Shown one piece after another: positions 1 to 14,741 of a stretch of 14,869 nucleotides of DNA (position 1 is the first letter of the stretch; each line of letters starts with the position of its first letter). The notes below the pieces were generated by a model. The model saw nothing but the letters and a program-made list of their open reading frames with translations. It had not been told where the DNA came from and did not search any database. Both the position numbers and the translations under genes were made by a program. The DNA comes from a virus (Duplodnaviria; Heunggongvirae; Uroviricota; Caudoviricetes): the IMG/VR virus record IMGVR_UViG_2579778929_000006; one strand, 5' to 3'.

Positions 1-1132
1 CCCCGGGGGGATGTCATTACGTGAAGTCACTGCATGGGCTCAGCTCCATGACGTTGCAACATTATCTGACGTGGCTCTCCTGAAGCGGCTGCGGAATGCC
101 ACCGACTGGTTTGGCATACTTGCCGCACAAACACTTGCTGTACGCGCCGCAGTTACGGGTTGTACAAGCGGAAAGAGATTGCGTCTTGTCGATGGAACAG
201 CAATCAGTGCGCCCGGGGGCGGCAGCGCTGAATGGCGACTACATATGGGATATGATCCTCATACCTGTCAGTTCACTGATTTTGAGCTAACCGACAGCAG
301 AGACGCTGAACGGCTGGACCGATTTGCGCAAACGGCAGACGAGATACGCATTGCTGACCGGGGATTCGGTTCGCGTCCCGAATGTATCCGCTCACTTGCT
401 TTTGGAGAAGCTGATTATATCGTCCGGGTTCACTGGCGAGGATTGCGCTGGTTAACTGCAGAAGGAATGCGCTTTGACATGATGGGTTTTCTGCGCGGGC
501 TGGATTGCGGTAAGAACGGTGAAACCACTGTAATGATAGGCAATTCAGGTAATAAAAAAGCCGGAGCTCCCTTTCCGGCACGTCTCATTGCCGTATCACT
601 TCCTCCCGAAAAAGCATTAATCAGTAAAACCCGACTGCTCAGCGAGAATCGTCGAAAAGGACGAGTAGTTCAGGCGGAAACGCTGGAAGCAGCGGGCCAT
701 GTGCTATTGCTAACATCATTACCGGAAGATGAATATTCAGCAGAGCAAGTGGCTGATTGTTACCGTCTGCGATGGCAAATTGAACTGGCTTTTAAGCGGC
801 TCAAAAGTTTGCTGCACCTGGATGCTTTGCGTGCAAAGGAACCTGAACTCGCGAAAGCGTGGATATTTGCTAATCTACTCGCCGCATTTTTAATTGACGA
901 CATAATCCAGCCATCGCTGGATTTCCCCCCCAGAAGTGCCGGATCCGAAAAGAAGAACTAACTCGTTGTGGAGAATAACAAAAATGGTCATCTGGAGCTT
1001 ACAGGTGGCCATTCGTGGGACAGTATCCCTGACAGCCTACAAAACGCAATTGAAGAACGCGAGGCATCGTCTTAACGAGGCACCGAGGCGTCGCATTCTT
1101 CAGATGGTTCAACCCTTAAGTTAGCGCTTATG
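1..1132 (+). mobile_element. IS186 (IS4 family), partial: left ~200 bp lie outside the window; right end at ~1132
   Basis: Transposase ORF runs in frame from the first bases of the window. Positions 1110-1132 (caacccttaagttagcgcttatg) are the reverse complement of the IS186 terminal inverted repeat as I recall it (CATAAGCGCTAACTTAAGGGTTG). The phage reading frame resumes immediately after 1132. Confidence 0.8.
2..961 (+). CDS. insL: IS186 transposase (IS4-family DDE transposase), N-terminally truncated by the window edge
   Basis: 316-aa ORF (11..961) continues upstream in frame (ccc ggg ggg atg = PGGM). Translation MSLREVTAWAQLHDVATLSDVALLKRLRN...YRLRWQIELAFKRLKSLLHLD matches my memory of the IS186 InsL protein. 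Confidence 0.8.
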   Translation, partial: PGGMSLREVTAWAQLHDVATLSDVALLKRLRNATDWFGILAAQTLAVRAAVTGCTSGKRLRLVDGTAISAPGGGSAEWRLHMGYDPHTCQFTDFELTDSRDAERLDRFAQTADEIRIADRGFGSRPECIRSLAFGEADYIVRVHWRGLRWLTAEGMRFDMMGFLRGLDCGKNGETTVMIGNSGNKKAGAPFPARLIAVSLPPEKALISKTRLLSENRRKGRVVQAETLEAAGHVLLLTSLPEDEYSAEQVADCYRLRWQIELAFKRLKSLLHLDALRAKEPELAKAWIFANLLAAFLIDDIIQPSLDFPPRSAGSEKKN

Positions 1133-1601
1133 GGCTGACGGGGACTATGTCGTCTGGGCTAAAGAAGTGCCCGGCATTACCCGCGCATGGACATACCGTC
1201 ACTGGATGGGAACGGGAACTGTCGGTGTGATGATTGCCAGCAGTGACCTGATTAATCCCATTCCGGAAGAATCAACGGAAACGGCAGCAAGACAACATAT
1301 CGGGCCACTGGCCCCGGTGGCAGGCTCTGATTTGTATGTATTCAGGCCGGTGGCACATACGGTGGATTTTCATATCCGCGTGACGCCGGACACACCAGAA
1401 ATACGGGCTGCCATTACCGCGGAGTTGCGTTCGTTCCTGCTGCGTGATGGTTATCCGCAGGGAGAACTGAAGGTATCGCGTATCAGTGAGGCGATTTCCG
1501 GTGCGAACGGGGAATACAGCCATCAGTTGCTTGCACCGGTGGACAATATCTCCATTGCGAAAAACGAACTGGCGGTACTGGGGACGATTTCATGGACGTG
1601 A
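1133..1601 (+). pseudogene. Phage baseplate assembly protein (P2 gpJ / Mu gp47 / e14 YmfP type), C-terminal fragment; 5' part displaced by the IS186 insertion
   Basis: The reading frame of ORF 1167..1601 is open back to the IS186 end at 1132 (…WADGDYVVWAKEVPGITRAW…). Its stop overlaps the start of the next tail gene (1592), as is typical of baseplate operons. Family assignment is by gene order and recollection. Confidence 0.55.
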
Positions 1602-2176
1602 CAAACGATGATTACATCCGCCTGTTATCGGCACTGTTGCCGCCCGGTCCGGCGTGGTCAGCCAGCGATCCGGCGATTGCCGGTGCGGCACCGTCATTAA
1701 CCCGTGTTCATCAGCGTGCGGATGCCCTGATGCGGGAGCTGGATCCGCGCACCACCACTGAACTGATAAACCGCTGGGAGCGTCTGTGCGGTCTGCCGGA
1801 TGAATGTATTCCCGCAGGGACACAGACCCTTCGTCAGCGTCAGCAACGGCTGGATGCGAAGGTTAACCTGGCGGGCAGCATCAACGAGAATTTTTATCTT
1901 GCACAGCTTGCTGCCCTGGGCAGACCAGATGCCAACATCACGCGATACGACAAAAGCACGTTCACCTGCTCATCGGTCTGTACTGACGCGGTGAATGCGC
2001 CGGAATGGCGGTATTACTGGCAGGTCAACATGCCAGCCGCCACAAACACCACCTGGATGACATGTGGCGATCCCTGTGATTCCGCGCTGCGTATCTGGGG
2101 CGACACCGTTGTCGAATGTGTGCTTAACAAACTCTGCCCGTCGCATACCTACGTAATTTTTAAATATCCGGAGTAA
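1592..2176 (+). CDS. Phage tail/baseplate protein (P2 gpI / Mu gp48 / e14 YmfQ type)
   Basis: 194-aa ORF, translationally coupled to the upstream J-type gene and followed 3 bp later by the tail-fibre gene. Position in the J-I-H-G order supports the call; the size matches the e14 YmfQ class from memory. Confidence 0.6.
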
Positions 2177-2179
2177 TCC

Positions 2180-3109
2180 ATGCATCGTATAGACACGAAA
2201 ACCGCGCAGAAGGATAAGTTCGGCGCGGGTAAGAACGGTTTTACCCGTGGTAACCCCCAGACCGGCACACCTGCCACCGATCTGGATGATGACTACTTTG
2301 ACATGTTGCAGGAGGAACTTTGCAGTGTTGTGGAGGCATCCGGTGCCAGCCTGGAGAAGGGGCGGCATGACCAGCTGCTTACAGCGCTTCGTGCGCTGCT
2401 GTTAAGCCGCAAGAATCCGTTTGGCGATATCAAATCGGATGGTACTGTGCAAACGGCTCTCGAAAACCTTGGTTTAGTAAATAACGGCGCAGTCGGTCGT
2501 CTGATTGGCATGCAGATAATCAAGACGTCTGGCACTTACACCAAAACTCCCGGAGCAATGTTCGCGGATGTCATCGCTATTGGGGGCGGTGGGGGCGGCG
2601 GATGGGCAACTTCCACAGCAAACTATAACGCCGCGGGTGGTGGTGGCGGTGGCGGTGGAATGGCACGTGGTCTCTTTAACCTGTCTGCAATATCAACCGT
2701 GCTTGTCACGATTGGTGCGGGTGGTAATGGCGGTATTGCCTCGACGATGACCAATGGCACGCAGGGTGGTACGACGACTTTTGGCTCTTATCTCTCAGCA
2801 AGTGGAGGCCAGCCAGGCAGCGGCTGCACTGCGTCAGGCTCCTCTGCGTCATGTGGCATGGGCGGTCAGGGTGGCACTTCGACCGTGGGTGCCATTTTGT
2901 GCAACGGGTACGCCGGGCTACCCGGTGTGATGGCAACCCCAACAGCAGTCGGAGGGAGTGTAGGTCACGGTCTTGGCGGCGGTAGCTTTATTTCTGGCCC
3001 TGGTGGGTATGGTGCGGGTGGTAATAGCGCGGCAACCGGTGGTGGGATGCAGAATGTCAACGGCAACCCGGGCAATGCTGGCGTGATTATTATTCTGGAG
3101 TACGCGTAA
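2180..3109 (+). CDS. Tail fibre protein with conserved N-terminal baseplate-attachment region and glycine-rich, low-complexity C-terminal region
   Basis: 309-aa ORF. N-terminus [51 protein letters not shown] resembles tail-fibre N-termini. C-terminal two thirds are Gly/Ser/Thr-rich with two poly-Gly runs (GGGGGGG, GGGGGGGG). The stop overlaps the start of the assembly gene. Confidence 0.6.
2457..2484. other. Candidate crossover site for a Din-family DNA invertase (hix/gix/cix/pix-like) inside the tail-fibre gene
   Basis: ctctcGAAAACCttGGTTTagtaaataa carries the palindromic core AAACC-nn-GGTTT. By my recollection it matches hixL (TTCTTGAAAACCAAGGTTTTTGATAA) at about 17 of 26 positions. It sits at the expected constant/variable junction of the fibre gene. 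Confidence 0.4.
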
Positions 3110-3516
3110 TGAATAGCAGATATGCAGTGATTGAAAATGGCACCGTGACCAACATTATCGTGTGGGATGGTGAAACAGTATTCTCCGCAGGAGATAATCA
3201 ACTGTTTATGCCCATTCAGGATAATGCAGGTATTGGCTGGTCATGGTCAGATGATGGCGGTGTATTTATTCCTCCGCCTGCCCCAAAAAAAACACCAGAA
3301 CAACTGGTTGCAGAAGCCAAAGCGGAAAAACAGACCAGACTTGATTTTGCGACCACAAAAATTGTCGTCTGGCAGACAAAGTTGCTGATGGGTCGCAAGC
3401 TCACGGACGAAGAAAGCACACAGCTAAATGCCTGGATGGACTACATCGACGCGGTGACGACAATCGACCCCTCCACCGCGCCGGATGTCATCTGGCCTGA
3501 ACTGCCGGAGGAGTAG
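3109..3516 (+). CDS. Tail fibre assembly protein (Tfa; Mu U / P2 gpG / e14 TfaP type)
   Basis: 135-aa ORF with start overlapping the tail-fibre stop (taATGa). C-terminal …LNAWMDYIDAVTTIDPSTAPDVIWPELPEE is the conserved Tfa C-terminal signature. Confidence 0.65.
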   Translation: MNSRYAVIENGTVTNIIVWDGETVFSAGDNQLFMPIQDNAGIGWSWSDDGGVFIPPPAPKKTPEQLVAEAKAEKQTRLDFATTKIVVWQTKLLMGRKLTDEESTQLNAWMDYIDAVTTIDPSTAPDVIWPELPEE

Positions 3517-3675
3517 GCCATTCAATATCTGGCGCACTGGAGGTATCAACCAGCTCCAGTGCATCCAGATAATCCAGCCACAGATTAAACTGCACTTTTC
3601 ATCATCAGACAATCGTCCAGGCGCGAGCCTGGATGCTGGCATCTCTGCCCAATTTAAATTTGAGAGGTAATTATG

Positions 3676-4227
3676 TTAACAGTTAATCCACCAGTATGTG
3701 CCGGGTGCCTGCGGGTAAGTGGCGGCGGCAACCTCGTGAACCATCCCCCAATCCAGAGCTGTGGAGGCATTGGCTATGGTGGCGGCGGAGATAACCTCCT
3801 TCCACTCATTGCGGCTCTTACTGAGCTCAATCTGACTCTCCAAAATATCGACAAAACGCTCCAGGTCATTATTGAGACACGCGCTCCACTCACTGACGCG
3901 TGAGTGATCCACGCTTGGGCCCATCAAGCCCCAGTGAAAAGGATGCAGTAAGAACCGACTCCCAGGATTCGCCTTACGTTCAGACCCTGCAAGAAAAATG
4001 ATATTAGCGACTGATTCAACATTGCTAAGGTTATGGGTCTTTACTGGGATTGGTAGGGCCTTTAGAAAGTGATAAGCAGTAAAACCTGCAACGAGGTCAC
4101 CGCCCGGACTGGAAATGTAAATGTTTAACTCAGTCGCCCCCTGATTGATAGCTCCAAGGCAATTGCTAATTAAAGCGTTAACGGTGGACTGATTTACGGG
4201 CACCGTGAAATTCATAGTATGCAGCAT
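3676..4227 (-). CDS. ClpP-fold (peptidase S14/S49-like) serine protease homologue, orphan
   Basis: Minus-strand ORF with AGGAGA 5 nt upstream of ATG at 4227-4225 (the track ORF starts one codon earlier at a GTG). NIYISSPGG aligns to the ClpP YINSPGG motif. A Ser lies 28 residues after SPGG in NVESVA, the same spacing as ClpP Ser97, and a His follows 22 residues later in RFLLHP (ClpP His122, spacing 24). The third catalytic residue was not confirmed. Confidence 0.5.
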   Translation of the reverse strand: MLHTMNFTVPVNQSTVNALISNCLGAINQGATELNIYISSPGGDLVAGFTAYHFLKALPIPVKTHNLSNVESVANIIFLAGSERKANPGSRFLLHPFHWGLMGPSVDHSRVSEWSACLNNDLERFVDILESQIELSKSRNEWKEVISAATIANASTALDWGMVHEVAAATYPQAPGTYWWINC

Positions 4228-4294
4228 CACTATCTCCTTGTTTAGTTAGTGGACACATTACCCTGGGAGCAATAAAAAACATAACGCATACTGC

Positions 4295-4740
4295 ATGCTT
4301 AGTTGGTGACCGGCGATCTAAGTTTAGCAAGGATGCATATCTGAAGGCGATACGCTGGTGGTCTGAAAGCGTGACCGCCTCGGTCGCAGCATGCGACATC
4401 TTGTTGGGTTAGTGGAGGAACTGCGGGAGAAAGGTGTTAACTTCCGGAGCCTGACGGATAGCATCGATACGAGTACGCCTATGGGGCGCTTCTTCTTTCA
4501 TGTGATGGGTGCCCTGGCTGAAATGGAGCGAGAGTTTATTGTCGAACGTACTAGGGCGGCTTTGCCGCAGCACGACAAGAAGGGAGGAACGGTGGGCGAA
4601 AGCCAAAGCTGACAGTAGAACAATGGGGGCAGGCTGGCAGGTTGATTGAATCGGGAATATATCAGCAGCAAGTCGCACTGATTTATGATCTGGATATTTC
4701 AACGGTGTATAAAAAATTCCCTGTAGCAAGTAAACCATAG
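4295..4740 (+). pseudogene. DNA invertase (serine recombinase, Pin/Gin/Hin/Cin family), disrupted
   Basis: Translation across frames gives EGDTLVV*KRDRLGRSMRHLVGLVEELREKGVNFRSLTDSIDTSTPMGRFFFHVMGALAEMEREFIVERT…, then after a frameshift RKPKLTVEQWGQAGRLIESGIYQQQVALIYDLDISTVYKKFPVASKP*. This matches invertase sequence from the middle of the catalytic domain through the C-terminal HTH. Defects: in-frame TGA at 4364-4366 where Trp is expected, a frameshift near 4590-4600, and most of the N-terminal catalytic region missing (ATGCTT at 4295 followed by an apparent deletion). Confidence 0.7.
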
Positions 4741-4766
4741 CCTTACGCCACATTGATGATCGCGGA

Positions 4767-5462
4767 TTATGCACTATTTTTAGGTCTTGTAACCCGAGGT
4801 GGGAGTTGTTTGGTTATATGTTCAAGTGATTTTTTGCCCAAGATAGTTCTTTGGACAAAACTTTCTATAGCTTCTAGCATTTGTTCGAACTCACTTTTAT
4901 TCGGGCTCCAACTGCGATGTGCGGCGGCGTTTCCTGCATCAATTACTGAAGATATAACGCATGCCTCAGTGTCGCCTATGACTCCATCTTGTTTTAATTT
5001 TTCAACTTTTTCACCAAGCGGCAAACCGGGGTGAATTTGTAACAGTTCAGCAGTTCGATCAAAAATCGTCCGTAAACCGATGGACGAAAGAATGAAATGG
5101 TCAGAAGTATATGAAGAATACATTTCATTAAATATTTGAAAGAGCTGACGATCAACTGATTCAAGCTTGGATAACCATATCGGAGCTTGAAATGTTTCAG
5201 CGGCAGGATAGGTAGTGATCATATCTATAGGCGTTTCTACAAATTCACCATCACGATATTCGTGGGTAGTATGCTCACTGAAGTGTTCGTTGTGGTGATA
5301 GAAGACAGTATCACAGCCATTGCATTGGAGTAGGTGATGGTAATGGTACCCATAAACTGGATATTGGGAATCCTCCCAGCTAGTGGTTAGCTTCCCATGC
5401 ACAGTGCAGTTACGTAACCCACCGCATGTAGGGCAAAGAGCCTTGAGTATTTCCTTTTTCAT
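4767..5462 (-). CDS. Hypothetical protein: N-terminal zinc ribbon plus C-terminal HEPN-like (DUF4145-type) domain; candidate defence/abortive-infection factor
   Basis: 231-aa ORF. Cys pairs C10-x2-C13 and C47-x2-C50 (CPTCGG…CNGCD) flank a His/Tyr-rich stretch. The C-terminal helical region carries GNAAAH, which I recall as the signature of Pfam DUF4145. GC content is visibly lower than in flanking genes. The RBS is weak. Confidence 0.5.
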   Translation of the reverse strand: MKKEILKALCPTCGGLRNCTVHGKLTTSWEDSQYPVYGYHYHHLLQCNGCDTVFYHHNEHFSEHTTHEYRDGEFVETPIDMITTYPAAETFQAPIWLSKLESVDRQLFQIFNEMYSSYTSDHFILSSIGLRTIFDRTAELLQIHPGLPLGEKVEKLKQDGVIGDTEACVISSVIDAGNAAAHRSWSPNKSEFEQMLEAIESFVQRTILGKKSLEHITKQLPPRVTRPKNSA

Positions 5463-5810
5463 AAAGTCTCTGATTCTATATGTAGGTTAAGACCACTATT
5501 AGCTATACGGACCTAATAATCAATCGTGTGCAGATACAAAAAAGCCCGTATAGCGGGATTTCATGTCACTAAGGGCCGCGGCTACTTTGCGTATCTTTTT
5601 TGTCTTCTCACCGTCTGGCCGGTATTTTGCTGAGACTGCTTATTTCCAGTTTTTACTAGTGCTGTACTGGTACTGCCCAATCATGATTGGTGGGGGACGG
5701 AGTTGAGACTGCAGCCACGTCGTATGCAAGAACGCGCTGCGGTTGGCTGGTGAACTTTCGATAGTGCGAGTATTGAATGATTTCCAGCCGTTACAGATTT
5801 TACGTGTTTA

Positions 5811-6059
5811 TTAGTGAACAAACCACTCGTCAGCAGATTCCCAGGTATCTTTCAGAGTCTCCTGAACAAAAGTTTTTGCAGAATCCTTATCTGCGGTGCG
5901 TGTAACAGAAAGGCCATCATTGCTGGTGGCTTTTACTAACACCTCAACATCGTCATAACGCTTACTGATGCGTCGGGTTAATTCTTCCTTTAACGCATCC
6001 ACAGCACCGGTTGGCATTTTAGTCATTTTTTCTTTGGCTATGCAGATTTCAATACGCAT
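5811..6059 (-). CDS. dinI: DinI-family protein (DNA-damage-inducible protein I homologue)
   Basis: 82-aa [14 protein letters not shown]…[11 protein letters not shown] closely resembles E. coli DinI (MRIEVTIAK…ETWESADDWFV). GGAGGG RBS upstream. Confidence 0.8.
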
Positions 6060-6074
6060 AAAAGTCCCTCCATA

Positions 6075-6090
6075 CTGTGTTTGTATACAG
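6075..6090 (-). promoter_or_regulatory. LexA (SOS) box upstream of the dinI-like gene
   Basis: CTGTgtttgtatACAG is a perfect CTGT-N8-ACAG. The 20-mer 6073-6092 (TACTGTGTTTGTATACAGCA) matches the consensus TACTGTATATATATACAGTA at 16 of 20 positions. It lies 16-31 bp upstream of the dinI-like start codon. Confidence 0.55.
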
Positions 6091-6120
6091 CATTATTTTT
6101 AACTGTATGGATAAACAGTG

Positions 6121-7218
6121 TCAAGAGGTCTTATTTCTGCTCCTTTGGAGCTCTTCAAAACGATTATGTAAAGATTTCGGATACAGTTCGGTATATACCT
6201 GCCATAGCACGTTTAATGAACGATGCCCTGTAACTTGGGCGACTTCCTCAATACTAAAACCAGCCTCAAATAAGCGACTTGCCCCTTCTCTACGCAAATC
6301 ATGGTATCGCAGATCCTTAATACCTAATTTGCTTCTTACTCTCTGAAATCCCGCAGTAACAGAAGTGCTGTTATATGGAAAAATGAATTCCGATTTTTGG
6401 GGCTGTCGTTGGACGATATCCCAGGCTTCCCCAAGCAAGGCTACTTTCATGTGGTTACCTTCCTTTTTGCGTGGATCTTTCCTGTCTCTTACGAGTATAG
6501 ATTTTTGTTCCTGGTCGAGATCTTCCCATCGTAACCGGCATACTTCTCCGATTCGCATACAGGACCATACAGAAAATTTGAGGATATCAACGAACGGAAT
6601 TTTTGAGCATTTATGAGTAGATCGTTGTTGAAGGCCTGCAATGAGCATGTCCAGTTCATCAGATGCTGGTCTACGATTACGACGGTTTGATTTACCAATC
6701 AAACCAAGTTTAAGTAGATATGGGCGAGCGCTTTTCGCCGGGTTTGATGTGTAATTAATTCCGTATACAGGTTTGGCCGCATCCAGAACACTGCCAAGAT
6801 AACTAACATCGTGGCTGACTGTTGCAGGACCTGCACCAGCGTTGTTTCTTAGCCTGCAATGTTCAATTACGTCATTTTCTGTCAGTTCAGATAGTTTGAT
6901 CGCGGAGATGTCACTATCCATAAGCAGTTCCAGCACATATCTTTTAGTACGGCCTGCTTTACCTCCGGCATTTGGGTCATTTAAATATTTGTGTAGTAAG
7001 TCACGGACTGTAAGTCCGTCAACTGCATTTGATGATGGAATGCCATATAGATCTAATTCCATCACTTTCTGTGTGCCCCATGTTTTGGCATGAGCATGTT
7101 TAGGGAATGTTTTGCTTTCCCTGTAAGTGATAACACCTTTTTCTTTGATAATCACATTACAGCGATAGCGTGGTGTGCCATCGGATTTTAGTCGTTTCTC
7201 TATGTTATAGTACGCCAT
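6121..7218 (-). CDS. Tyrosine site-specific integrase, candidate dusA-associated integrase
   Basis: 365-aa ORF with C-terminal …LRYHDLRREGASRLFEAGFSIEEVAQVTGHRSLNVLWQVYTELYP, consistent with the H-x-x-R … Y catalytic signature of tyrosine recombinases. GAGG RBS. Start codon is 89 bp from the divergent dusA start. Confidence 0.85.
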   Translation of the reverse strand: MAYYNIEKRLKSDGTPRYRCNVIIKEKGVITYRESKTFPKHAHAKTWGTQKVMELDLYGIPSSNAVDGLTVRDLLHKYLNDPNAGGKAGRTKRYVLELLMDSDISAIKLSELTENDVIEHCRLRNNAGAGPATVSHDVSYLGSVLDAAKPVYGINYTSNPAKSARPYLLKLGLIGKSNRRNRRPASDELDMLIAGLQQRSTHKCSKIPFVDILKFSVWSCMRIGEVCRLRWEDLDQEQKSILVRDRKDPRKKEGNHMKVALLGEAWDIVQRQPQKSEFIFPYNSTSVTAGFQRVRSKLGIKDLRYHDLRREGASRLFEAGFSIEEVAQVTGHRSLNVLWQVYTELYPKSLHNRFEELQRSRNKTS

Positions 7219-7306
7219 TACACGACCTCGTTATTTCGGGTTCCCATAAAACGTGGGAACCTGTGCGGGAACCTAACGCGAGAAAAATAGCCTGAAATGT
7301 TCAAAA

Positions 7307-8344
7307 ATGCACGATAATCATGAAACACAAAAAATTAATCAAACCAGCGTGATGCCTGAAAAAACTGGTGTTTACTGGAATTCTCGGTTTAGCATTGCTC
7401 CTATGCTCGACTGGACGGACAGACATTGCCGCTATTTCTTGCGTCTGCTTTCCCGCAATACGTTGCTGTATACCGAAATGGTGACCACAGGGGCGATTAT
7501 TCACGGTAAAGGTGATTACCTGGCGTACAGTGAAGAAGAACATCCGGTAGCGTTGCAACTCGGCGGTAGCGATCCGGCGGCGCTGGCACAGTGTGCGAAG
7601 CTGGCAGAAGCGCGTGGATATGATGAGATCAACCTGAATGTCGGCTGCCCGTCTGACCGGGTGCAGAACGGCATGTTTGGTGCGTGTCTGATGGGTAATG
7701 CGCAGCTGGTTGCCGACTGCGTGAAAGCGATGCGCGATGTGGTGTCGATTCCGGTGACGGTGAAAACGCGTATTGGCATCGACGACCAGGACAGCTATGA
7801 ATTTCTCTGCGATTTCATCAACACCGTTTCCGGCAAAGGCGAGTGTGAGATGTTCATCATCCATGCACGTAAAGCCTGGCTTTCGGGGTTAAGTCCGAAA
7901 GAAAACCGTGAGATCCCGCCGCTCGATTATCCGCGTGTGTATCAACTGAAGCGTGACTTTCCGCATCTGACAATGTCGATTAACGGTGGTATCAAGTCGC
8001 TGGAAGAGGCCAAAGCACACCTGCAACATATGGATGGCGTGATGGTCGGGCGCGAGGCGTATCAGAATCCGGGTATTCTGGCGGCGGTAGACCGGGAGAT
8101 CTTTGGTTCCTCGGATATCGATGCCGATCCGGTGGCGGTAGTGCGCGCCATGTATCCGTACATTGAGCGTGAACTCAGCCAGGGGACGTATCTCGGTCAT
8201 ATTACCCGGCATATGTTGGGCTTGTTCCAGGGTATTCCTGGCGCGCGGCAGTGGCGGCGTTATTTAAGTGAAAATGCCCATAAAGCGGGTGCAGACATTA
8301 ATGTGCTGGAACACGCGCTCAAACTGGTGGCGGATAAGCGTTAA
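7307..8344 (+). CDS. dusA: tRNA-dihydrouridine synthase A
   Basis: 345-aa ORF. …[37 protein letters not shown]…[14 protein letters not shown]… matches E. coli DusA. The true start is uncertain (in-frame ATGs at 7307, 7322 and 7352), and the first codons may be island-derived. Confidence 0.9.
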
Positions 8345-8373
8345 CTTTTCACCAAAAAATAGTCAAATTCACC

Positions 8374-8407
8374 ACGCCCTGCGCACCGTCGCGGGGCGTT
8401 TTGCTGT
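8374..8407 (+). terminator. Probable rho-independent terminator after dusA
   Basis: GC-rich hairpin acgccctgcg-cacc-gtcgcggggcgt followed by tttgctgtt, about 30 bp after the dusA stop. Confidence 0.5.
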
Positions 8408-12751: not shown

Positions 12752-13945
12752 GTGTTTCAAAAAGTTGACGCCTACGCTGGCGACCCGATTCTTACGCTTA
12801 TGGAGCGTTTTAAAGAAGACCCTCGCAGCGACAAAGTGAATTTAAGTATCGGTCTGTACTACAACGAAGACGGAATTATTCCACAACTGCAAGCCGTGGC
12901 GGAGGCGGAAGCGCGCCTGAATGCGCAGCCTCATGGCGCTTCGCTTTATTTACCGATGGAAGGGCTTAACAGCTATCGCCATGCCATTGCGCCGCTGCTG
13001 TTTGGTGCGGACCATCCGGTACTGAAACAACAGCGCGTAGCAACCATTCAAACCCTTGGCGGCTCCGGGGCATTGAAAGTGGGCGCGGATTTCCTGAAAC
13101 GCTACTTCCCGGAATCAGGCGTCTGGGTCAGCGATCCTACCTGGGAAAACCACGTAGCAATATTCGCCGGGGCTGGATTCGAAGTGAGTACTTACCCCTG
13201 GTATGACGAAGCGACTAACGGCGTGCGCTTTAATGACCTGTTGGCGACGCTGAAAACATTACCTGCCCGCAGTATTGTGTTGCTGCATCCATGTTGCCAC
13301 AACCCAACGGGTGCCGATCTCACTAATGATCAGTGGGATGCGGTGATTGAAATTCTCAAAGCCCGCGAGCTTATTCCATTCCTCGATATTGCCTATCAAG
13401 GATTTGGTGCCGGTATGGAAGAGGATGCCTACGCTATTCGCGCCATTGCCAGCGCTGGATTACCCGCTCTGGTGAGCAATTCGTTCTCGAAAATTTTCTC
13501 CCTTTACGGCGAGCGCGTCGGCGGACTTTCTGTTATGTGTGAAGATGCCGAAGCCGCTGGCCGCGTACTGGGGCAATTGAAAGCAACAGTTCGCCGCAAC
13601 TACTCCAGCCCGCCGAATTTTGGTGCGCAGGTGGTGGCTGCAGTGCTGAATGACGAGGCATTGAAAGCCAGCTGGCTGGCGGAAGTAGAAGAGATGCGTA
13701 CTCGCATTCTGGCAATGCGTCAGGAATTGGTGAAGGTATTAAGCACAGAGATGCCAGAACGCAATTTCGATTATCTGCTTAATCAGCGCGGCATGTTCAG
13801 TTATACCGGTTTAAGTGCCGCTCAGGTTGACCGACTACGTGAAGAATTTGGTGTCTATCTCATCGCCAGCGGTCGCATGTGTGTCGCCGGGTTAAATACG
13901 GCAAATGTACAACGTGTGGCAAAGGCGTTTGCTGCGGTGATGTAA
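12752..13945 (+). CDS. tyrB: Aromatic-amino-acid aminotransferase
   Basis: Translation from GTG at 12752 ([37 protein letters not shown]…) gives 397 aa, matching E. coli TyrB. GGAG RBS 9 nt upstream. The track ORF starting at 12710 is an in-frame upstream extension. Confidence 0.9.
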
Positions 13946-13954
13946 TGCAGGAAA

Positions 13955-13978
13955 GCAGGCTGGAGTTACCCAGCCTGC
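13955..13978. terminator. Hairpin immediately after tyrB (possible terminator)
   Basis: gcaggctgg-agttac-ccagcctgc, a 9-bp perfect stem starting 10 bp after the tyrB stop. No clear T-run follows, so terminator function is uncertain. Confidence 0.35.
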
Positions 13979-14465
13979 AGTGAAATTAAACTGTCGTCGC
14001 TTTCACTATTTCTTTGTAGATGATTTTTTTGATGCCGTTGTTCTACGTGAGAGATAATAAAACGTTGTCAGTTCTTTTATTGTTAAGTTTATCCCAATTA
14101 TCTGGAATTCCTTTCCCTATTTTTTCGTGTGGAGTAATAATTTCTGCACATCTAACCATTATTAAATTTAATAATAAGTATCGGGTTTGTTACGATAGAA
14201 TATTTCTATATCCTCAAGAATATGCTTTGCCTTATTACCTGTGACTTTCTGAGATTCAATTATAGTATCGTTAAATTCTAATGTTAAAGAGAGCTATTTT
14301 TTCCGCTTTGTGTAAGTTTAACCTTATATTGATTACCAATATCAAATAAAAAGGTCCTGTAATGAGAATAATCACCTTTAACCTCCTCGGCAAAACAGCA
14401 AAGCGTGCAAGGTGATGCTGCCAACTTACTGATTTAGTGTATGATGGTGTTTTTGAGGTGCTCCA

Positions 14466-14741
14466 GTGGCTTCTGTTTCTATCAGCTGTCCCTCCTGTTC
14501 AGCTACTGACGGGGTGGTGCGTAACGGCAAAAGCACCGCCGGACATCAGCGCTATCTCTGCTCTCACTGCCGTAAAACATGGCAACTGCAGTTCACTTAC
14601 ACCGCTTCTCAACCCGGTACGCACCAGAAAATCATTGATATGGCCATGAATGGCGTTGGATGCCGGGCAACTGCCCGCATTATGGGCGTTGGCCTCAACA
14701 CGATTTTACGTCACTTAAAAAACTCAGGCCGCAGTCGGTAA
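14466..14741 (+). CDS. insA: IS1 InsA (transposition inhibitor / N-terminal part of InsAB')
   Basis: 91-aa [46 protein letters not shown]…LKNSGRSR is identical to IS1 InsA as I recall it. Confidence 0.9.

Follow-up and report, generated by a model that had tools for sequence, protein, structure and literature searches.

The window analysed here, a 14,869-nucleotide stretch of tailed-phage DNA (IMG/VR record IMGVR_UViG_2579778929_000006), carries a tyrosine integrase gene that is divergent from the tRNA-modification gene dusA. We propose, with a probability of about 0.95, that positions 6121–7410 constitute the attachment site attL, that is, the integrase-proximal junction, of a temperate prophage integrated site-specifically in the 5' end of dusA. 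A preliminary description made from the letters of the window had placed the start of the integrase 89 bp from the dusA start in the opposite orientation. This geometry is accurate: the two genes are divergent, 88 bases (7219–7306) lie between the start codons, and the ATG-to-ATG offset is 89. The dusA open reading frame (ORF; 7307–8344, plus strand) encodes 345 amino acids with a full-length Dus domain (Pfam E 2e-104) and is annotated as dusA in every matching Escherichia coli genome. The junction is made up of the following parts.

6121–7218, minus strand: tyrosine integrase of the dusA-associated integrase (DAI) family, an intact ORF of 365 amino acids (Pfam PF00589 Phage_integrase, E 8e-21)
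7219–7306: divergent int/dusA intergenic region, phage-borne, present in the attP of the free phages mEp460, SKA5 and others
7307–7402, plus strand: phage-supplied dusA codons 1–32 (the 'PhidusA' segment), assigned by site comparison
7403–7410: att core ATGCTCGA, the crossover region of attL, equal to dusA codons M33-L34 and the first two bases of D35
7411–8344, plus strand: host-derived rest of dusA, from the last base of codon 35 to the stop codon

The junction was located by aligning four kinds of site: attP from the free phage mEp460 and a 43.7-kb circular record, attB from genomes with an empty dusA, attL from the window, and attR from full lysogens. The preliminary description had called for a comparison with empty-dusA genomes, and the four-way alignment, which includes them, brought out the core at 7403–7410. 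The core ATGCTCGA is identical across attP, the K-12-type attB, attL and attR, and the partner switches on either side of it. It sits inside a longer imperfect repeat at about 7388–7422 (TTTAGC-TTGC-CC-ATGCTCGA--GGA). On the left, the 96 nt of the window that precede the core match the attL of lysogen E1 at 96/96 positions and the mEp460 attP at 89/96, with 78/96 for the K-12-type attB and 38/96 for the CFT073 attB; the left arm of the attP in the circle of strain CT01 matches the window at 60/60. On the right, the 50 nt that follow the core are identical to the K-12-type attB (50/50). The attR of E1 has the reciprocal composition, its left arm being 96/96 to the K-12-type attB and its right arm 48/50 to the mEp460 attP. 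From the core to the stop codon, dusA is identical to MG1655 at 931 of 942 positions and to CFT073 at 919 of 942, and the identity to MG1655 steps from 81% in codons 1–32 to 98.8% in the remaining 942 nt. The att quartet and the identity step therefore put the phage/host junction at the 8-bp core 7403–7410; 7219–7402 is phage DNA, and dusA from 7411 is host DNA. The dusA part of the window matches all 5426 complete E. coli genomes, which serve as the base for the presence/absence counts given below.

The phage side of the junction is documented by independent phage records. Ten of them, including that of the free phage mEp460, cover at least 80% of 5800–7420, nine with 97–99% identity and phage 1720a-02 with 95% (95.1%), and the matches of all ten end at 7407–7412. 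In the attP of the free phages and of the circular record (NZ_CP081794, strain CT01, 43.7 kb, with an identical Int protein), the segment 7219–7410 is followed by phage DNA. The far arm of the phage, the side which the displaced host 5' fragment adjoins, carries …ATGCTCGATAGGATGTACCG…, and the far-arm sequence directly after the core in the expected attR is TAGGATGTACCGTTTTTG. That the element supplies a replacement 5' end for dusA, as had been proposed at the outset, is borne out by the dusA 5' segment in the attP of mEp460 and of the CT01 circle. The accompanying estimate, that roughly the first 20 codons come from the island, was right about the phage origin but too short in extent, which amounts to 32–35 codons (codons 1–32 plus the shared core, codons 33–35).

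The other island end, which the preliminary description expected outside the window, was found in lysogens E1, EC4115 and N47 as a displaced host 5' fragment beside zur. E1 has a prophage of about 39 kb with int-dusA at one end and, at the other, a 105-bp pseudogene annotated as 'tRNA-dihydrouridine synthase, missing C-terminus' beside DUF2713/zur. The same layout surrounds a 10.9-kb remnant in O157:H7 strain EC4115 and is repeated in the B2 lysogen N47, where the displaced fragment is of the CFT073 type. An attR is thus found in all three lysogens. The B2-type attB core differs by a C-to-T change (ATGCTTGA; 4010–4017 of the CFT073 locus L003 and 2651–2658 of the N47 locus L090). We considered that this core might be unusable and rejected the idea, as N47 is a lysogen with a CFT073-type attR arm. 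The crossover in N47 is resolved to the last two core bases, because its attR keeps the T of the host core. In evenly spaced samples of 40 genomes each, 1/40 CFT073-type genomes and 11/40 K-12-type genomes had an occupied site, which suggests that the B2 site is used less often than the K-12 type, but not never.

Two other ways of reading the junction have to be weighed against these data. The insertion could lie upstream of dusA near 7304, with the whole dusA frame ancestral and the integrase targeting the zur-dusA intergenic region. A megablast of 5700–8400 against most island-free E. coli does start its alignment at 7304, three bases before the dusA ATG, and K-12-type genomes do encode a similar N-terminus. 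The boundary set by such crude BLAST is nevertheless misleading, as it arises from this similar 5' end. Positions 7307–7402 agree with the phage attP or other attL sites at 89–96/96 as against 78/96 for the K-12-type attB, and the host match becomes 50/50, and 98.8% over the rest of the gene, only beyond 7410. Moreover, the bases that follow 7219–7410 in the free phages and the circular record are phage DNA, and lysogens still have, at the far end, a second and host-type version of the first 35 codons. The att quartet rules out a junction near 7304, and we judge it very improbable.

We give even less credence to the view that the integrase is a domesticated enzyme resident in the chromosome, an Xer- or Rci-like recombinase which stands next to dusA with unrelated mobile debris to its left. 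Such a view could appeal to the sub-threshold XerA/XerC/XerD matches, to the distant resemblance to the IncI shufflon recombinase Rci (26–27% identity) and to the disruption of the local prophage arm by an insertion sequence (IS). The int gene, however, is missing from 4695 of the 5426 genomes and from both types of empty site. The same int is found at attP in the free phages mEp460, SKA5, the Stx2k phage and 1720a-02 as well as in the circular 43.7-kb record, and deletion of int in 1720a-02 abolishes attP formation (PMC6328086). The presence/absence pattern and the phage records rule this view out. The preliminary description had held that its proposal would fail if strains without an island had the same dusA upstream region and integrase-like gene. 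Island-free strains lack the integrase, 7219–7306 is present in neither the K-12-type nor the CFT073-type empty site, and the island-free dusA 5' segment is 81% identical to that of the window (K-12 type) or, at 38/96, essentially unrelated (CFT073 type). These results favour integration by a phage-borne enzyme within dusA.

The integrase itself belongs to the DAI family. The catalytic residues R222, H306, R309, H332 and Y342 are all present and align with the catalytic positions of Rci and of DAI homologues. The protein is 100% identical to the Int encoded on NZ_CP081794 and 98.6% identical to the Int of phage mEp460. Its 99.2% identity to the EC4115 island integrase, which is included in Table S1 of Farrugia et al. 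2015, confirms the earlier assignment to the published family of dusA-associated integrases. Mixta, Morganella, Grimontia, Vibrio and Aliivibrio have integrases divergent from dusA that are 42–70% identical to that of the window, and homologues in this range share the dusA-adjacent placement in six other genera. In an unbiased scan of other species, anchored on dusA, an integrase homologue lay no more than 3 kb upstream of the gene at 16 of 80 loci; the full-length homologues start about 90–200 bp upstream and are divergent, and those at the Vibrio loci are 42–55% identical and occupy the same position. Within E. coli, the same int-dusA arrangement, scored as a match to the stretch with the integrase and dinI, occurs in 731 of the complete genomes. 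The adjacency of int and dusA is not due to chance.

The NCBIfam models gave no specific family for the integrase, only weak sub-threshold matches to XerA, XerC and XerD. Compared with the recombinase beside the pilV shufflon of IncI plasmid pESBL-EA11 (the Rci position), homology extends over about 80% of the protein (E ~1e-13; 27% identity over 285 aligned positions), and the catalytic residues are shared. The window Int stops about 70 residues short of Rci in the alignment, and its neighbours are dinI and dusA, not pilV. Rci, which has a C-terminal extension of about 70 amino acids, acts by inverting segments of the shufflon beside pilV and does not serve a mobile element as integrase; the window Int is without this extension. 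Five features by which the DAI family is recognised are found here, namely the RHRH-Y residues, homology to a listed member, the position beside the dusA 5' end, a semi-conserved repeat in the dusA 5' region and an element-supplied dusA 5' end.

This system has been described before. Tyrosine recombinases beside the dusA 5' end were reported from more than 200 genomes by Farrugia et al. 2015 (PMC4482086), who gave semi-conserved att repeats of 21 bp and considered DAI distinct from the integrases of other phages, integrons and integrative and conjugative elements, with Rci as the closest characterised relative. In their account the new dusA 5' end, with the TIM barrel's beta-1 strand, comes from the element, and excised islands take the form of circles. 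E. coli lysogens appear in their Table S1, as does the EC4115 remnant (NC_011353 5179273..5190127), whose right end, 5190127, maps to window position 7410. The DAI islands and the window element are alike in the RHRH-Y residues, the divergence from dusA, the att repeat in the dusA 5' end and the supplied 5' end. We see no essential difference between them; the published experiments concerned Acinetobacter and Pseudomonas islands with att sites of 26–28 bp, and the window represents an Escherichia prophage branch.

A nearer relative is the Stx2d phage 1720a-02 (Phi-stx2dact, KF030445), which is 95.1% identical to the window in nucleotide sequence over the dinI-int-dusA' region. Balasubramanian et al. 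2019 (PMC6328086) reported that this phage integrates 100 bp into dusA, with a 7-base core in a 21-bp motif and an in-frame phage 'PhidusA' segment. On their evidence Int is the recombinase, excision being Int-dependent and SOS-inducible, and a delta-int mutant loses attP formation. The published position of 100 bp into dusA corresponds to window position 7407, and four of the published primers match the window exactly (7059–7079, 7112–7137, 7238–7257 and 7371–7402). The two elements share the integration point, a core containing TGCTCGA and the in-frame phage dusA start. They differ in the remainder of the element: 1720a-02, studied in Citrobacter rodentium, is a Stx-converting siphovirus of the lambdoid type, whereas the module in the window resides on a contractile-tail prophage of the CT29/E1 type, IS-disrupted and with no stx in view.

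The phages mEp460 (JQ182728), SKA5, Lys8385Vzw, PhiR40_1 and phiSTEC1575-Stx2k have a DinI-int-attP region that is 97–99% identical to the window at the DNA level (98.6% for Int), and these genomes, from free or induced phages, have structural modules of the lambdoid type. Given these lambdoid backbones, the integration module is a mobile cassette common to unrelated phage backbones. The dusA gene is routinely listed among Stx-phage insertion sites. Durand et al. 2021 (PMC8409611) describe Vibrio dusA-targeting genomic islands that are mobilised by IncC plasmids; these islands use the same target gene and restore its 5' end in the same way, but they are small mobilisable islands and not prophages. 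The preliminary description thus correctly recognised a known system with experimental support on a near-identical phage.

Based on these comparisons, the integration can be pictured as follows. The DAI-family tyrosine recombinase recombined attP with the chromosomal attB inside the 8-bp identity, within dusA codons 33–35. The attP consists, in order, of an integrase-proximal arm with the surrogate dusA start (the 88-bp upstream region and codons 1–32), the core and the far arm. Integration displaced the original host 5' end by about 39 kb to the other prophage end, outside the window, and fused the phage surrogate in frame to host codons 35–345, so that a full-length dusA ORF is kept. The surrogate segment would supply a working promoter, 7219–7306 presumably holding the promoters of both int and the replacement dusA, and the chimeric DusA would be active. 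The IS-disrupted copy in the window may likewise still be able to excise.

Several observations weigh against this picture or limit it. A consensus scan of 7100–7500 for promoters and terminators found nothing, and in particular no sigma-70 promoter. Since the sigma-70 scan was empty, the promoter-replacement step is without support from the sequence data here, and the promoter function of the intergenic region rests on PMC4482086. The attR of the window copy lies outside the window. DusA has two candidate start codons, 7307 and the in-frame ATG at 7352. Finally, the visible arm has an IS in a baseplate gene, and the prophage is probably defective as a phage because the IS interrupts this baseplate J/gp47 gene.

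The preliminary description had also remarked on mobile-looking DNA to the left of the integrase. This impression was well founded, and the DNA comprises a DinI-like gene, DUF4145 cargo, a ClpP-like ORF, tail-fibre and baseplate genes and an IS421-family IS, arranged as follows.

5811–6059, minus strand: DinI-like gene, the conserved partner of the int module (Pfam DinI, E 1e-19)
1132–5810: remaining visible prophage arm, with the end of the baseplate J gene, ymfQ, tail-fibre and assembly genes, the ClpP-like ORF, a recombinase remnant and the DUF4145 cargo
1–1131, plus strand: IS4-family insertion sequence inside the baseplate J gene of the prophage (IS4 transposase model of NCBIfam, 124 bits)

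The DinI-like gene adjoins the same int in mEp460, SKA5, the Stx phages, E1, CT29 and EC4115. The window arm is 99.0% identical to the dusA prophage of strain CT29, in which a complete head-tail module extends leftward. The match to the CT29 prophage begins at 1132, directly after the IS, and the baseplate J/gp47 gene (window 1132–1601) is uninterrupted in CT29 (13412–14470 of locus L088). The IS at 1–1131 is 99.8–99.9% identical to copies annotated by RefSeq as 'IS4-like element IS421 family', which occur in 2212 genomes at a median of 3 copies; we take this annotation to denote the IS186/IS421 group.

The slot between the tail fibre and dinI (window 3676–5462; 4260–4817 of locus L004; 4766–7095 of locus L092) is variable among near-identical elements. 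It holds the ClpP-like ORF and the DUF4145 protein in the window, a Pin-like invertase and DUF4145 in E1, and a type II restriction-modification pair in the CT01 circle, and it looks like a cargo hotspot for moron or defence genes. Strain 730V1 (L001, 1–19800) is the best genome match to the int-dusA junction, at 99.8%, and has a region rich in IS26, IS1, IS5 and IS21 with McrBC-like genes in place of the phage body. The int-dinI-DUF4145 stub in this strain may persist as an anchor for unrelated mobile DNA, since the phage body has been replaced by the IS-rich region. To the right of dusA, the genes pspG, qorA, dnaB, alr and tyrB follow in the usual E. coli order. A 55.6-kb record labelled 'plasmid pSX12-2' (NZ_CP142787.1, locus L005) contains int, dusA, pspG, qorA, dnaB, alr and tyrB and duplicates the chromosome of the same strain. 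We rejected it as an excised phage on account of its chromosomal content (dusA, pspG, dnaB, alr); it is probably an assembly artefact, neither a plasmid nor an excised phage.

The comparison of empty sites led to a second question, the origin of the host alleles themselves. Two host-type 5' segments account for all 5426 genomes, 4303 being of the K-12 type and 1123 of the CFT073 type. In the K-12-type empty site the order is zur, yjbL/yjbM (DUF2713) and dusA, with a 345-amino-acid DusA starting MHGNSEMQKINQTS… (MG1655, HKUOPY1); in the CFT073-type site zur lies directly beside a dusA of 331 amino acids starting MPAESHTVYPAYRFS…. We compared window 7304–7402 with 4667–4765 of the MG1655 locus (L093) and 3956–4009 of the CFT073 locus (L003). 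The K-12-type 5' end is 81–82% identical to the phage arm, and the similarity runs from a few bases before the ATG to the att core. The K-12 and CFT073 alleles lose homology exactly at this core, their flanks being otherwise about 97% identical. Relative to the unoccupied alleles of Kluyvera, Enterobacter and Phytobacter, the CFT073-type segment is 70–77% identical and the K-12 type 53–61%, and the CFT073 type shares with these outgroups the pattern …PA(H/Y)RFSIAPM. Because of the likeness to the phage arm, the break at the core and the likeness of CFT073 to the outgroups, we lean towards the reading that the K-12 dusA start (MHGNSEMQKINQTSAMPEKTDVHWSGRFSVAP and the upstream region; 4303/5426) is the fossil attL arm of an ancient dusA element that afterwards lost its integrase and far end by deletion, and that the B2/CFT073 allele (1123) alone is ancestral.

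Element-type 5' ends can be recognised beyond E. coli. An MH-x-N start and the motif AAAATGCACGAAAAT recur in the element-supplied 5' ends at occupied sites of Mixta, Morganella and Xenorhabdus, and such ends begin with MH(E/Q)N… where the DNA has a conserved AAAATGCAC(G/C)AAAAT motif, like those of the window and K-12. In Photorhabdus antumapuensis (L030, 2760–2816 and 2890–3000), dusA has an element-type N-terminus, MHQNKEIEK…, with only int codons 1–19 remaining upstream (79%, E 4e-6); this is evidently an attL fossil. The dusA 5' end of Kosakonia L016 is K-12-like (78% identity across 96 nt), its ATG is mutated and there is no integrase, and similar N-termini without integrase are also found in Moellerella L032 and Erwinia L026; all three are probably comparable fossils. 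A motif of the form AAAATGCAC(G/C)(A/G)(A/T)AAT spans the dusA start codon at window 7299–7325 and in loci L028, L029, L033, L041 and L032. It is seen in elements from several Enterobacterales genera and yields the MH-x-N protein start; it may be an arm site of the integrase or belong to the divergent promoter of int and dusA.

The direction of transfer might instead have been the reverse, the K-12-type 5' end being native to E. coli and a phage lineage having taken its surrogate segment from a host of this kind. Most of the genomes do carry the K-12-type segment, and its similarity to the phage segment alone gives no direction. The fossil reading has its own weak points. Upstream of K-12-type dusA there are three collinear weak int-like nucleotide matches, but the score of the best of them (window 7045–7087 against 3822–3862 of locus L002) is reached by 13 of 500 dinucleotide shuffles, and tblastn of this upstream region found nothing aligning with the int N-terminus. 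These matches are suggestive of a decayed int and are not used as evidence. No displaced CFT073-type fragment, the expected old attR, was found between zur and yjbL/M in K-12-type genomes. A tblastn search for DUF2713 (yjbL/yjbM) travelling with the K-12-type 5' end gave no matches in 80 loci, and zur synteny is uninformative, as different genes separate zur from dusA in the near outgroups. Against a native K-12-type end stand the closer relation of the CFT073 type to Kluyvera, Enterobacter and Phytobacter, the MH-x-N start with AAAATGCACGAAAAT in the element-supplied ends of Mixta, Morganella and Xenorhabdus, the loss of homology between the two alleles exactly at the att core, and the Photorhabdus locus, where a 5' end of the same kind still has int codons 1–19 beside it. 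We therefore regard capture from an E. coli host as possible but less likely, and an ancient element as the better account of the K-12 dusA start. No paper stating a fossil origin of this start was found in searches confined to texts naming dusA.

The recognition of attL adds little beyond annotation, in that the phage bases of the dusA region (7219–7402) and the position of the core are now defined. It does show one cassette, dinI-int-attP with a surrogate dusA start, common to lambdoid, Stx-converting and contractile-tail prophages and present in about 13% of complete E. coli genomes. A fossil origin of most E. coli dusA starts, in strains with or without a prophage, is a modest point and possibly a new one. 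If true, work on the expression, the start codon and the N-terminal structure of E. coli DusA concerns a chimeric gene, and present dusA phages would mostly integrate beside an older copy of their own arm. The differences between the attB alleles (core C versus T; occupancy 11/40 versus 1/40) may affect which lineages acquire dusA-targeting Stx phages.

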